Numbered from the stretch's first letter, positions 1,044-59,369 are shown. The stretch is 64,000 nucleotides of DNA from Octopus vulgaris (GCA_951406725.2 OX597824.1:61814001-61878000); one strand, 5' to 3'. A program made the numbers and translations. Notes: generated by a model from the letters alone, not told the origin.

Positions 1044-1628
1044 TACATATATATATATATCTATCTATCTATATATATATATATATATACATACATAAAT
1101 ATATATATATATATGTATGTATGTATGTATGTATGTATATATATATATATATATATATATATATATATATATATATATATATATATATATATATATATAT
1201 ATATATATATATATATATATATAAATATATAAATATATATATATATATATATATACATATATATATATATATATATATATATATATATATATATATATAT
1301 ATATATATATATATATATATATATATATATATATATATATATATATATATATATATATATATATATATATATATATATATATATATATATATATATATAT
1401 ATATATATATATATATATATATATATATATATATATATATATATATATATATATATATATATATATATATATATATATATATATATAATATATATATATA
1501 TATATATATATATAAATACATATAATTATATATATATATATATATATATAAATACATATAATTATATATATATATATATATATATATATATATATATATA
1601 TATATATATATATATATATATATATATA
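1044..1628. repeat. long (TA)n microsatellite
   Basis: Near-pure TA dinucleotide run with a few TATG/TACA interruptions; source of the YI-repeat ORFs. Confidence 0.97.
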
Positions 1629-2075
1629 TTCGTTTCACCACACGATCTCAGATCAAATTACTTGCTATGCGAGTACATCTCCGTAATATATTTATATATA
1701 TATATATATATATATATATATATATATATATATATATATATATATATATATATATATATATATATATATATATATATATATATATATATATATATATATA
1801 TATATATATATAAATATATTACGGAGATGTACTCGCATAGCAAGTAATTTGATCTGAGATCGTGTGCTGAAACGAAAATAATTGCAGCGTGGAAGGTGTT
1901 TATAAGCCATTTAAGAAACACACAAAAGCTGTTCGATTCACTTCAACATTTAAGTTTAATTTGCAGCACGGACTTTGTCAGTGAACAGGTCGCGGATTTT
2001 AGCTACGAAAATATTTTGACAAATTAAACTTAAATGTTGAAGTGAATCGAACAACTTTTGTGTGTTTCTTAAATA
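1628..2075. mobile_element. PLE pseudo-LTR-like repeat as three partial copies in inverted arrangement within (TA)n
   Basis: 1628-1693 is the reverse complement of ~1810-1878 around a TA spacer; ~1910-1962 is the reverse complement of ~2020-2074; a homologous copy lies at ~52030-52180. Confidence 0.75.
1974..2023 (+). ncRNA. type I hammerhead ribozyme, G3-C8 core variant
   Basis: tttgtca-GTGAACA-g-gtcgc..gctac-GAAA-atat-TT-tgacaaa: 7-bp stem I, stem II with one mismatch, palindromic minimal stem III. Confidence 0.6.
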
Positions 2076-2329
2076 TGCATATGTATATATATGTATATAT
2101 ATATATATATATGTATATATATGTATATATATATATATATATATGTATATATATATATGTATATATATATATATATATGTATATATACATATGTATATAT
2201 ATATATATATGTATATATATATATGTATATATATATATATATATACATACACATTAATATGTAAATATATTTACATAAGTATAGTGTAAAGTTGCAATAA
2301 AACGATTTTCCACGTGATGAATTGTAACT

Positions 2330-3415
2330 GAAAAATATTACAAAAAAACTAATAAGCCTCATCACCCAAACTTACAGTATTCATCTATTTTTCAAAATAT
2401 TCAGTTCATGACACCGTACGCGTTTGCTCACTTGAATGCCCCCGCGACATTCTAAAACGAACATAAAGTGAGAGAAAAAAATTGAAATTTAATTAAGTAT
2501 TATTACCATTTTTAAAAATAACAACAATAATAAAGTGCCCAGCAAGTTTAACCTAAATAGGCAAAATATACAAATAAATTAGGGTAGCGAAATACCAGCT
2601 TGTTCGTTTTTGAACGTCTTCGGGGCCTTCAAGTGAACAAACGTGCGTGTTTTAATGACATGATTTATTTGAAAAACAGATTAATACAGTAAGCTTGTTT
2701 GATAATCCTTGTGCTAACGCACAAAAGGTGAAGTAATTTGATACCAACATATCTGTTCTTGCTTTGTGGTTTATGCATAGGTAAGGTATATTCTTATTAT
2801 ATTCGTTACATTTGCCGTGCGTATTTCTTAATAGTGAGGAATTTATGGCTTTGGAGTGTTGACTCCTATTTCTAGCTAACTTGTATTTCGGTACTCTAAT
2901 TTATTTGTACAATTTGCTTATTTTGGTTAAACTTGCCGACCGCTTTATTATTATTACTGTCATTTTTAATAATGGTAATAATACTTTATTAAATTTCAAT
3001 TTTTTTCTTACTTTATGTTCGTTTTTGAATGTCACGAGAACATTCAAGTGAACGCACGGTGTAAAGAAATGAATAATTTGAAAAACAGATGAATACAGTA
3101 AGCTTGGCTGATGATCCTTAAGTGCTAACGCAAAAAAGGTGGAATCGATAGATAATAAAAGACTGTTCTTGCTTTGTAGCTTATGCAAAGGTAAGGTTCA
3201 TTTTTATTATATTTATTATATCTCTTGCATTCAACGTGCGTAATTCTTAATATTGACAAATATGTGACTTTGAAGTGCTGACTCTTATTTCTAGCAAGCT
3301 GGTAATTCGGTACCTAATTTATTTGTATATTTTGCCTATTTAGGTTAAACTTGCCCGTCACTTTATTATTATTGTTATTTTTGATAATGTTAACAAGAAT
3401 TTATTAATTTATATA
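2330..3415. repeat. ~420-bp diverged repeat unit: one inverted partial copy followed by two tandem copies
   Basis: ~2600-3017 aligns with ~3018-3415; ~2360-2600 is the reverse complement of parts of these units; ends in TA. Confidence 0.7.
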
Positions 3416-56196: not shown

Positions 56197-57300
56197 AGCA
56201 CATATTTTGTTCTGAGAAAAGAGAATTGGAAACGATTCTTAGACGATTGTTTTATACTCTGGAATGAAAACACAGATAAACTCCTAAAATTTAAAAACCT
56301 ATTGAACAGCGTAAACCCAAATATACAGTTCACAATGGAATACAACCAAAAGGAGCTCCCGTTCTTGGATATACTAATTAAAAAAATTAACCTTAAAATA
56401 GAAACAGACATTTTTTACAAAGCCACAGACGCCAAACAATACCTTCATTTTAATTCATGCCACCCAAGACACACTAAAACAAACATCCCCTTCAACCTTG
56501 CAAGAAGGATATGCACAATAGTGTCAGAACAAAATACCAGGAACTTTAGACTGCAAGAACTCAAAAACACCCTAATTGACAGACATTACCCAGCCCAACT
56601 CATAGAGGATGGGATCAGACGTGCAACAGAAATCAACATAGAAACTTTAAGAAAAGTTCAACACAACAACACACCTTTCCCGAAAATACTACCTTACATA
56701 TCTACATACAACCACAGAAACAAAGAAGCCTTCACCATCATCACCCGGAATTTACCAATACTACATATGGAGCCCAAATTAAAGGAAATTCTAAACATAC
56801 ACCAAATCATTAAAAGCTACAAACAACCTAAATCACTTAAAAATATTCTCACAAAGGCAAAATTGTTTTCTGAAATTACGGATGCAAAAGTAAAAAAATG
56901 TGGTAGATCGAACTGTGCAACATGTCCAAACCTGCTAGAAGGATCAGAATTCCTCTTTAAAGAGGGACAGAAATTCAAGATCAAATCTAACTTTACTTGT
57001 GCCTCTGAAAACATAATTTATGTCATAAAATGCTCGGGCTGCCACCAAGACTACGTGGGATCCACAGGACTATCACTCAGACGTAGATGCACACTGCATC
57101 GACAACAGATTGCATTCCCAGAATAGAGAATGATACCTTTTAGTGAGCACATTGAGAAATGCGCAAAGCAACTACTACCACAATTTTTAATCTTTCCATT
57201 TTACCAATGTGCTTTCGGATCATCAACACAAATGAGACTAAACAAGGAAACATTCTTCATTGAAAAGTACAAGCCCAGGCTTAACCATGCCAACATACAC
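56197..57300 (+). pseudogene. PLE RT C-terminal part + Cys linker + GIY-YIG, one premature stop at ~57124
   Basis: WKRFLDDCF (~56227-56253), LNSVNPNIQFTME, LPFLD, YLHFNSCHP, CGRSNCATC, IIYVIKCSGCHQDYVGST, then EHIEKC..E..FIEKYKPRLN. Confidence 0.9.
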
Positions 57301-57441
57301 CAAGGGAAAGGAAAAAAAAAAAAAAATTTTAAGCGACTATCTCCCTTATACCGGAAGAAATCACTCATTACCTCCCCTTATTTAGAACGCTTTTAAACGT
57401 AAACATAAAGATAACTCTGTTCAAGATAAACATAACGTCGT

Positions 57442-57480
57442 AAGAAATTTGAAAAGCTAAACGCGAAACCGGTCTTTCTT
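57442..57480 (+). ncRNA. minimal hammerhead ribozyme, U3-A8 variant with an extra U before the core
   Basis: aagaaa-t-TTGAAAA-gc-taaac-gc-GAAA-ccgg-TC-tttctt, at the expected position in a PLE pseudo-LTR. Confidence 0.62.
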
Positions 57481-59369
57481 CTAAATTATGTCATTGTAAG
57501 AAAAATTTTTTTAATATTCTTCAGACATATTGACGCAAATATATATATTTTTTAACCTTTAAGCCTTCTGTAGTTTTTTCACTTTTTACTATTTTCTATA
57601 TATATGTATATATATATATATATATATATATATATATATATATATATATATATATATATATATATATATATATATATATATATATATATATGTATACATA
57701 TATATATATGTATACATATATATATATATATATATGTATACGTATATATATATAGGTACATATATGTGTGTGTGTATGTGTGTAGGTATGTATGTATGCA
57801 TATAAGTGTGCATATATGCTTATGCTCTAACTGATTCCAGTATTGAAAATGTTATCACTATTTAAAAAGATAAACTGACACTGAATCTTTTCAGCCAGTA
57901 GAAAAATTGGGTAACACAAATTAGCTTTGACCATCAACCGTTGTAAAGCCGACTGTATGTTATTCTTTTCTCCTTCCTTAATTAATATCCTTATTTTTCT
58001 GGCATGATCTCCTTCAATGTCTCAGATTACGTTTTAGAGTTACTCAGACATTTGCGTATTACTTATACTTCGCATAATACCCATGTTAAGTTTCGGTTTT
58101 ACTGAAACATAACATTGACAGAATCACAAAATCTAGGCCAGTTTGGTCGCTACATCTTCATACAGTAAGTCATCCTACCAGTCATGTAGTCAAAGTACGC
58201 ATTCTGATAATTGTAGATAGGTTCAATAGCAGTGATAAATAACGAATAGAAAATTTTGTTACCTCTTGTGGGAGAGATGAACTACCAGTTCGCGTCTAAC
58301 AGGAAATAAATGAAATCATTATATTTGGAGACGACTAGAAAGGTTTACCCATCAATGACTGTGTACTTGAAATCAACACGAATAAAAACATTGATGTTTG
58401 TTTTTCTTTATGGAAGTGAGAAGTCAAAATATGTGTGATTTTTTGGTTGTTTCTTTTTTGCGTGAACGGTATACAACGCCTAGTAGAATTCTAGACTTAC
58501 TAATACAAATGTCAGAAAAATGATAAAATACCATTTGCTGAGACAGCTTTCAGTAAACTCGCACAATTATTTGACAACGTGGGAAGACATATAACATGAT
58601 ATCGCATCCACGGCTATTAAAGCCGTTTTCAGAAATCACATTGTACTCACCCGTTCTAACAACGCCATCAAAACGTAACGGATGTTCTCAGGTATACATC
58701 ATTGTAGTAAAAGTTTCGCTAATTCTGTTGCATAAACTTTTCAGGTGTTTGAAAAGAATAAGAAATATTTATAGTTAAGCATATATCATATTTCATACAG
58801 GTGGGAATATTTTTCTATTTTGGCTTTCGTATATATTTGGCTACTGCCAATTGGAAGACCACTATCTTAAGTCCAGCTGGCATGCCTTTCTTTATGTGCC
58901 ATCGGACGTGAGAAATTTACATATTTGTTCATTATCGCATCAGCTGAAACTTACTTCTGTTTCAAACCAATGCAACCGCATTACATAGCTTCAGGTGATA
59001 TACCGATGTGCGTGTGTATGCGTTTGTGTATGCGAGCGCGTGCGTAGGTGCATGTATGTGTATGTTTGTGCATGTTTGGGTGCCTGCGCGTGTGTGTGAG
59101 TGTGTATGTATATATTTCACCGTTTCGAGTATATTAAGTCTATGCATTTAATAATTGAAATGCATAAGATTTGTTTTAATCTTTTGAAATATTACTCTCA
59201 TCCACTCTAATCAGCATGCTTGTGCCTCCGTAGAAAGAGAAGTTTACTCTCACTACTCTGGCTTTGGATAGCGGTCGATCTAAGTTGAGATGACCAGAGC
59301 TATTAACTTTTCATTTTTTGCGGAGTACACTCAATGCCCGTACCCATTGACAAATTGTTATTAAATGCC

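Follow-up and report, generated by a model that had tools for sequence, protein, structure and literature searches.

Hammerhead-bearing 3' ends of Penelope-like elements fused to (TA)n tracts in a 64-kb window of the Octopus vulgaris genome

Introduction

A stretch of 64,000 nucleotides from Octopus vulgaris (GCA_951406725.2, OX597824.1:61814001-61878000), hereafter the window, holds 16 motifs resembling type I hammerhead ribozymes in the midst of TA microsatellites, and this raises the question of which elements carry these ribozymes and how they came to lie beside (TA)n tracts. The window lies on contig 11 of the 2.8-Gb genome, has a G+C content of 34% and is dense in TA, CA and TATC repeats. 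In keeping with the stated origin, a protein recorded under O. vulgaris has a 100% match in this genome. We consider it very probable that the motifs mark the 3' ends of about ten families of Penelope-like elements (PLEs) and of derivatives devoid of an open reading frame (ORF), each joined to (TA)n at either of two fixed positions, probably through nicking of both target strands and two internal starts of the reverse transcriptase (RT).

Several components of this picture have precedents. Minimal type I hammerheads with a 9a base, some with a U3-A8 core, have been described in the terminal repeats (pseudo-LTRs, for long terminal repeats) of metazoan PLEs (Cervera and De la Pena 2014, PMC4209133), and the Hydra clade of PLEs combines hammerheads, (TA)n targets and a tail on one end (Craig et al. 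2021, PMC8557442). To judge from the accessible text of these two papers, the headline pattern is largely known, as PLE hammerheads, TA targeting and tails are already published. In O. vulgaris itself, 31 recently active Penelope-like families have been reported, with ribozymes unmentioned in the accessible part of that report (PMC13282606). To this picture the present analysis adds a family with a natural G3-C8 core, together with its sister family and an unpaired subfamily, a strict pairing of short and tailed ends that an ORF-less unit shares, a long fingers insertion in an RT and an excess of TA around young insertions.

Hammerhead motifs in the window

The initial annotation had placed 16 type I hammerheads in 64 kb, and this count holds, since a type I parse is obtained at each of the 16 sites, the coordinate being the first base of stem I on the plus strand or the low end of the motif on the minus strand. 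A strict descriptor with a CUGANGA core recovers five of them and a misregistered parse at 55222, that is six hits versus 0.13 per shuffled window. When any Watson-Crick 3-8 pair, a 9a bulge or a mismatch at 10.1/11.1 (the base of stem II) and a long loop II are tolerated, 11 of the 16 sites are found, all with the type I core, three helices and a Watson-Crick 3-8 pair, and zero additional ones appear in the window. The core is non-canonical at four sites, a feature that the initial annotation does not mention, with G3-C8 at 1974 and 52042 and U3-A8 at 55910 and 57442, and stem II is long (40-105 nt) in several families. An Rfam scan of the window gave no hammerhead family in the best 150 of 388 matches, which are dominated by microRNA models on microsatellites. 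A reading of 1974 and 52042 as type II motifs of the minus strand was rejected because the plus strand offers a 7-bp stem I and a paired core.

Chance matches have to be considered in AT-rich DNA so dense in microsatellites, all the more as, for a given side, roughly one position in four of the window has a tract within 300 nt and five sites (28727, 52042, 44254, 42807 and 55222) are too weak or mutated for the relaxed descriptor. Each of 28727 and 52042 is a mutated member of a family with an intact majority sequence; 44254 matches its family consensus, stem II having just 2 bp across family G; 42807 is a decayed motif 72-77% like family E; and 55222 is decayed and E-like, as judged by eye. 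The relaxed descriptor finds about 0.3 motifs per shuffled window (20 shuffles) against the 11 observed, the motifs are conserved over hundreds to thousands of copies, and their fusion to TA is exact to the base. Furthermore, in 70 ten-kb stretches taken at round coordinates regardless of hammerheads (700 kb), the same descriptor finds 31 motifs, seven of them from one array, where about 1.4 are expected by chance. When positions 3 and 8 are left free in this sample, 29 of 34 hits are Watson-Crick paired (20 C-G, 7 U-A and 2 G-C). The shuffles, this pairing and the TA fusion counts given below refute the chance reading, to which we attach practically no weight. The window is nevertheless rich by the standard of the sample, with about four times its motif density (11 per 64 kb vs 31 per 700 kb) and twice its density of TA tracts. 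Descriptors with CUGANGA fixed miss G3-C8 cores, and 10 of the 31 hits of the random sample have swapped cores; reports of PLEs devoid of hammerheads therefore deserve a re-scan.

Repeat families and their parent elements

Ten stretches of the window, covering 14 of the sites, were used as genome queries and returned 231-2,642 first-look candidates each, and the 30 best loci of each family were fetched (L numbers below designate sequences fetched from the genome). About ten high-copy repeat families, A to J, account for the 16 motifs, which form their 3' ends; about nine had been proposed. They are arranged in the window as follows.

1820..2079 (+), palindromic family I copy of the young subfamily, made of an inverted arm with tail (1820-1963) and a sense arm (1962-2074); extra tail fragment 1629-1690
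1974..2023 (+), G3-C8 hammerhead of this copy; 7-bp stem I, bulged G9a, U17, stem/loop III formed by palindromic ATAT, a single mismatch in stem II
4768..4924 (+), 3' end of family A (likely a PLE of Hydra type), joined to TA by its short end; hammerhead 4800-4855
9100..9306 (-), family B 3' end (Hydra-type PLE by motifs), short end; hammerhead 9123-9173, U.U at the base of stem II
9763..10180 (-), family C, rearranged copy of the 429-nt unit with an inverted arm; hammerhead 9853-9925, without TA fusion
16030..19626 (-), family B 5'-truncated element; endonuclease remnant 19057-19626, microsatellite-rich 3' untranslated region (UTR) of about 3 kb, hammerhead 16111-16161, tailed end on TA
28581..29028 (+), family D 3' end; mutated hammerhead 28727-28858, stem II/loop of about 105 nt
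39413..39919 (both strands), family E, two arms joined head to head in a palindrome; the tailed arm, with hammerhead 39623-39705 (-), runs into TA and the short arm, with hammerhead 39785-39867 (+), into (CTAT)n
39994..40860 (-), family F, the ORF-less 583-nt unit in about 1.5 copies; hammerhead 40294-40385
41224..41718 (-), remnant of a Hydra-type GIY-YIG endonuclease on the strand of 40294, its assignment to family F dropped
42612..42902 (-), diverged relative of family E; hammerhead 42806-42891
43158..44398 (+), family G 5'-truncated element, Hydra-type by motifs; last 23 endonuclease codons, 3' UTR, hammerhead 44254-44291 (2-bp stem II), tailed end on TA
44415..44583 (-), family H 3' end (young PLE, Hydra-type by motifs); flanked by TA on both sides and located in the tract that family G adjoins, hammerhead 44450-44540
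52029..52175 (+), 3' end of a family I copy from the older subfamily; its G3-C8 hammerhead, 52042-52092, carries two point changes
55222..55310 (+), decayed E-like hammerhead
55787..57603 (+), family J PLE, Neptune-type by motifs; inverted arm with tail 55787-56204, holding U3-A8 hammerhead 55910-55948 (-); remnant of RT and endonuclease 56218-57285; second U3-A8 hammerhead 57442-57480; joined to TA at the short end

A full or near-full PLE ORF, encoding in a single frame an RT together with a GIY-YIG endonuclease at the C-terminus, lies on the strand of the hammerhead in families B (L321, L324), G (L327, L328), H (L329), J (L325, L326) and I, all five of which also present a terminal repeat with hammerhead, an inverted arm and an optional tail. 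PLE proteins are matched at 17 of the 30 loci of family G and at 29 of the 30 of family J, where Pfam RVT_1 is found as well. Endonuclease remnants stand upstream of family E in 4/30 loci, where they are of Hydra type and at a consistent distance, and of family A in 2/30, and for family D no PLE ORF occurs within 1.5 kb upstream in any of the 30 loci, where there is one weak match on the opposite strand. Judged by their sequences, five families are clearly tied to PLEs (B, G, H, J and I), two weakly (A and E) and two are ORF-less (C and F).

The RWK and DKT motifs of family G (L328) and the CxCX5C linker of families B (L324) and H (L329), replaced by CxF in the linker of G copies, designate B, G and H as Hydra-clade type PLEs, which A and E likely are too. 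With the Hydra clade these families would share, in addition to the motifs and the linker, a canonical hammerhead, (TA)n insertion, inverted arms and a tail on one end; the octopus elements differ by microsatellite-rich 3' UTRs of 1-3 kb and by tails of 64-155 nt vs 30-40 nt, as far as the Hydra elements are described in the accessible text (PMC8557442). By its DKG motif, its CX2-5CxxC linker and a long spacer before GIY-YIG (L325, read by eye), family J is assigned to the Neptune type. The ORF of family H (L329:2290-3657) contains a long asparagine-rich insert between RT and endonuclease; such inserts, with inverted ends and a tail, are documented in rotifer Penelope elements (PMC3846280, accessible part). 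Two relatives of family J (L307:7429 and L368:2765) have a fully paired 7-bp stem I and U3-A8, while the window subfamily has an unpaired U beside position 3.

Three coding remnants had been annotated near a hammerhead of the same strand. All are genuine PLE sequences on the strand given, and two are physically part of the element of the hammerhead: 19057-19626 is 92.6% identical to the B ORF of L321, its element matching full B copies collinearly as far as 16111, and 56218-57285 is the ORF of family J. The third, 41224-41718, is not tied to 40294 and ends 360 nt short of family F. A fourth remnant, of 23 codons, is found at 43158-43226 in family G. A Pfam search of eight window frames named none of the three remnants.

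Families C and F are organized differently from the other eight (A, B, D, E, G, H, I and J), where no head-to-tail unit is found. They consist of ORF-less head-to-tail units with a type I hammerhead and a period of 429 nt in family C (15/27 loci) and of about 583 nt in family F (16/30 loci), and two or three tandem hammerheads occur in 6/30 F loci and 0/27 C loci. Once these units had been recognized, the assignment of the 41224-41718 remnant to family F and that of a remnant at L179 to family C were dropped. In the available parts of their descriptions (Cervera and De la Pena 2020, PMC7229834; Li et al. 2026, preprint 10.64898/2026.07.22.740005), non-LTR retrozymes are likewise built of head-to-tail units, ORF-less and a few hundred bases long, each containing one type I hammerhead; families C and F differ from them by the two-end signature of PLEs and by fusion to TA, and the F unit, with 583 nt, exceeds the usual 150-450 nt. 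A word search of the preprint text did not find the word 'tail'.

These units invite the explanation that most motifs are independent non-autonomous retrozymes propagating through circular RNAs, with coding remnants as incidental neighbours. A retrozyme array with a 359-nt unit in 5.6 copies, two inverted hammerheads and a canonical core was indeed met in the random sample (L301:2272-4763), and copies of family I share a 5' end, located 50-62 nt upstream of the cleavage site in 46 of 75 copies, which may correspond to the start of an RNA or to a point of template switching. This explanation is contradicted for five families, B, G, H, J and I, which run collinearly into PLE ORFs; E and A run into endonuclease remnants, and eight families, D included, show no head-to-tail unit. 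We therefore regard it as quite unlikely and retain PLE 3' ends as the source of most motifs. The motifs of L316 and L319 are related to the L301 array, with a nearly identical stem II and a U3-A8 core.

Two ends and fusion to (TA)n

The sense direction of the ribozymes had been described as running into TA or TATC tracts, and this polarity is borne out: a tract lies within 300 nt downstream at 16/16 window sites and upstream at 8/16, against 24% of random window positions (the sites being partly non-independent). The motif at 9853, presented as the exception, does lack TA fusion. Across the random 700 kb, TA lies within 300 nt downstream of 20 of the 31 hits and upstream of 11, for 17.6% expected.

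Of 300 family loci, 284 have a recognizable anchor, and setting aside 12 that belong to the window itself leaves 272 scored copies. Fusion to (TA)n is seen in 233 of these, against a rate of 2.6% at control positions; each family has two end sites, 43-173 nt apart, and 257 of the copies stop at one or the other. Inverted insertions obey a strict rule: of 48 examined in full, 33 allowed both ends to be classified, and every one of the 33 joins one short and one tailed end. Short ends sit on 2-7 nt of TA-like element sequence, bases that could prime by pairing. Since other copies continue with element sequence beyond both sites, the TA does not represent an RNA tail. In families H, E, F and C, simple truncated copies are often bordered by TA at their 5' side as well, 33/146 overall, a noisy tally in which many junction calls fall in low-complexity UTR or at hidden inversions. 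The earlier suggestion that several PLE lineages and ORF-less derivatives target TA is thus upheld as far as these lineages do end in (TA)n; the pattern is genome-wide instead of specific to the window, and most short copies are truncated ends of coding elements, not separate non-autonomous families.

These observations suggest a mechanism modelled on the Poseidon PLE of the green anole, for which nicking and extension of both strands, two start sites and a protein-assisted hammerhead have been reported in vitro (Frangieh et al. 2024, PMC11167929, accessible part). The element endonuclease would nick both strands of a TA tract and the RT would begin copying from either nick, at an internal position of the RNA that differs between the two. 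Early termination would leave mostly short, ORF-less-looking ends, which would build up in regions rich in TA tracts and insert into one another's TA. A PLE protein would copy families C and F in trans, a proposal made because F shows the same short and tailed pairing and both families have the same two ends and TA fusion; these features constitute putative mechanistic evidence for PLE mobilization of C and F. The hammerheads are predicted to be slow, to be assisted by dimers or protein and to process tandem transcripts, and are probably not needed at every insertion. Lunse et al. are said to have described dimers of PLE hammerheads in 2017.

According to the available text, the anole system shares with the octopus families two RT start sites that define the tail, the use of both strands and an AT-rich target (PMC11167929). 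It differs in three respects: G3-C8 is natural in octopus, the target is (TA)n, and octopus short ends lie on TA-like bases where the anole start site is reported to be non-homologous to the target. The rule obeyed by all 33 typeable insertions and common to an ORF-less unit would provide genomic support for two-strand, two-site priming and for retrozymes copied by PLEs.

TA tracts as target or product

The (TA)n tracts might also be partly made at insertion, the RT slipping on, or adding, repeats at nicked AT-rich ends, in which case PLEs would seed and lengthen microsatellites. Around 27 young inverted insertions, the median length of pure TA, both sides summed, is 81 bp vs 31 bp expected (95% range 18-47) from a length-proportional choice among 1,153 background runs. 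Individual loci point the same way: L240 has 126 bp of TA, with no TA in collinear paralogues and at most CATAT in six further left-flank relatives, and L235 has 108 bp vs 8 bp in its sole paralogue. Paralogues of the host repeat were recovered at just seven distinct ones of the 38 sites with complex flanks that were tested, and they carry TA at several insertion points, the host position being already TA-prone in five of the seven. Moreover, the same excess would arise if long pure tracts were preferred, if the cuts were staggered, if slippage followed later, or if old background tracts had decayed. Four DNA runs aligned to L218 gave no read joint skipping the element and no true empty allele, the flanks being high-copy repeats. 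Integration may extend the flanking TA, but its being a maker of these tracts strikes us as improbable, and we favor (TA)n as a pre-existing target. If integration does lengthen TA, PLEs would help build one of the most microsatellite-rich animal genomes.

The G3-C8 hammerhead of family I

Family I keeps the tertiary 3-8 pair of the hammerhead, flipped to G3-C8, and is predicted to be partly active. A 20-mer covering this core has 5,777 exact genomic matches with G3-C8, 204 with G3.G8, 16 with C3.C8 and none with C3-G8, and the paired G3-C8 form outnumbers the unpaired G3.G8 form 28 to 1. Two subfamilies with 87% protein identity have the same core and the same stems I, II and III and differ in loop II. 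A sister family (P0003, 54% protein identity) folds homologously around C3-G8, shares G9a and U17 with family I, and has a compensatory A-U in stem II at the place of a G-C pair of family I. Between G3.G8 and G3-C8, trees give no polarity, ancestral or derived (pairwise divergence 0.062 vs 0.081). Among ten single motifs folded by minimum energy, a young family I copy (L433) forms stems I and II (z -3.2).

Natural U3-A8 cores, and G3-C8 as an engineered variant, are on record in the accessible parts of PMC3088659, PMC3884650 and PMC8495972, and in the anole Poseidon element the engineered C3G/G8C change partly rescues the hammerhead (PMC11167929, accessible part). A natural G3-C8 hammerhead was not found in the literature searched, in which the form appears only as an engineered one; subscription papers were mostly outside the scope of this search, and the supplements of PMC4209133, PMC3088659 and preprint 10.64898/2026.07.22.740005 could list one. 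On the basis of PMC3884650, U17 would enable family I to avoid a G3-C17 trap. Cleavage by the family I hammerhead stands as a prediction, of partial activity, and a sequencing-run search with one family I stretch listed no RNA run as containing it.

Several observations weigh against the overall reading proposed here. Most of the ten single motifs give partial or alternative minimum-energy folds instead of hammerheads, and in four families the base of stem II contains a mismatch. Older families are less often fused to TA (I 14/26, A 15/25), and TA beside young insertions is longer than length-proportional targeting predicts. Cores in which cleavage is predicted to be impaired have multiplied as well: the 204 G3.G8 copies have spread, all nine inspected having different flanks, and in the sister family position 9 is a C (A9C) in about 92 of the first 100 listed of 3,891 matches. 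The 5' ends of copies show no enrichment at the cleavage site (8 in its bin, 3-7 in neighbouring bins). Finally, the 30 loci per family are best hits and not a random draw, and clade names come from motifs read by eye and not from a tree.

The spread of G3.G8 and A9C cores and the lack of copy ends at the cleavage site suit the view that the folds are kept for protein binding or packaging, or are drifting relics, cleavage being irrelevant and G3-C8 a neutral change that rode an active lineage. This view is also consistent with the lizard PLE, in which hammerhead mutants insert normally in vitro, the hammerhead being dispensable there, and RNA-seq ends at the site were not seen (PMC11167929). 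It is opposed by the Watson-Crick 3-8 pairing of unselected hits over unrelated families (29/34), by the 28 to 1 preponderance of paired cores in family I, by its three stems unchanged between subfamilies while loop II differs, and by the inferred role of U17. We hold it to be a serious but less probable explanation, and the reading in which the hammerheads process PLE transcripts is preferred. Thousands of young copies with natural G3-C8, a C3-G8 sister family and a G3.G8 subfamily within one genome offer a ready test of the need for cleavage, a question standing since 2014.

The sister family (L435:819-864; L436) is very young, with frames of up to 1,312 codons and 99% identical copies; its hammerhead has C9 and a non-palindromic stem III. 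Among the first 100 matches listed, family I hammerheads often stand head-to-head, 43-45 nt apart, with a recurrent palindromic junction just upstream of stem I. Contig 16, which represents 2% of the genome, holds 25 of 40 matches to the upstream UTR of family I, older and longer copies being concentrated there, and its first 6.6 Mb hold 20 of the first 100 listed G3.G8 matches. This contig may be a slowly purged chromosome, such as a sex chromosome.

The protein of family I

Family I was walked through a microsatellite-rich 1-kb UTR to an open frame of 1,025 codons (L431). Pfam places GIY-YIG at its C-terminus (2.6e-06, residues 835-925 of 945), preceded by a short cysteine linker that looks Nematis-like by eye. 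From RT motif A to motif B', family I has 136 residues, versus 64 and 67 in G and J, and this distance is 132-141 in 59 aligned relatives from public contigs, octopus and sea cucumber. The four best Foldseek matches of the protein model (predicted local distance difference test, pLDDT, 89) are telomerases, with E values of 4.5e-06 to 9.6e-06 and low TM-scores (template modelling). By the distance between motifs A and B', the RT appears to have a fingers insertion of telomerase length.

Fingers insertions are known from telomerases and from PLEs with an N-terminal endonuclease, and from none of the canonical C-terminal ones (Craig et al. 2021, PMC8557442, accessible part). Family I was not filed as Nematis, with which it shares, in the accessible description (PMC8557442), the C-terminal GIY-YIG and the short cysteine linker, because of the 136 residues between motifs A and B' (64-67 in G and J); nor was it assigned to Naiad/Chlamys, where the endonuclease is N-terminal, its own GIY-YIG being C-terminal. 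A literature search found no other relevant paper on the combination of an insertion with a C-terminal endonuclease. One may speculate, as a single joint proposal that we rate as rather doubtful, that family I is an undescribed, marine-animal-wide PLE clade with a telomerase-length fingers insertion, whose hammerhead crossed a fitness valley in nature (C3-G8 sister, about 200 G3.G8, thousands of G3-C8), and that PLE enzymes lengthen or create their (TA)n in the manner of telomerases, as a source of octopus microsatellites.

Comparison with other PLE hammerheads and additional repeats

The octopus hammerheads share with those of metazoan PLEs a position in terminal repeats, a short palindromic stem III, an unpaired 9a base, an occurrence as solo motifs and opposite-strand pairs, and U3-A8 cores (PMC4209133). 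They differ by the long stems II of several families and by G3-C8, which, like octopus, goes unmentioned in the accessible text of that paper.

Other repeats of the window lie apart from these families. Tandem or direct repeats at 2353-3455, 59363-59786 and 62277-63408 (periods of about 419, 184 and 575 nt) contain CTGANGA heptamers and have zero descriptor hits. Three near-identical copies resembling short interspersed nuclear elements (19590-19978 and 21074-21250), two of them in tandem and each followed by TA, contain CTGACGA without a hammerhead fold. Two broken elements of the long interspersed nuclear element type, at 10272-13391 (-) and 24886-27285 (-), have Pfam RVT_1 frames, the first with an endonuclease frame as well, and are unrelated to the PLE families.

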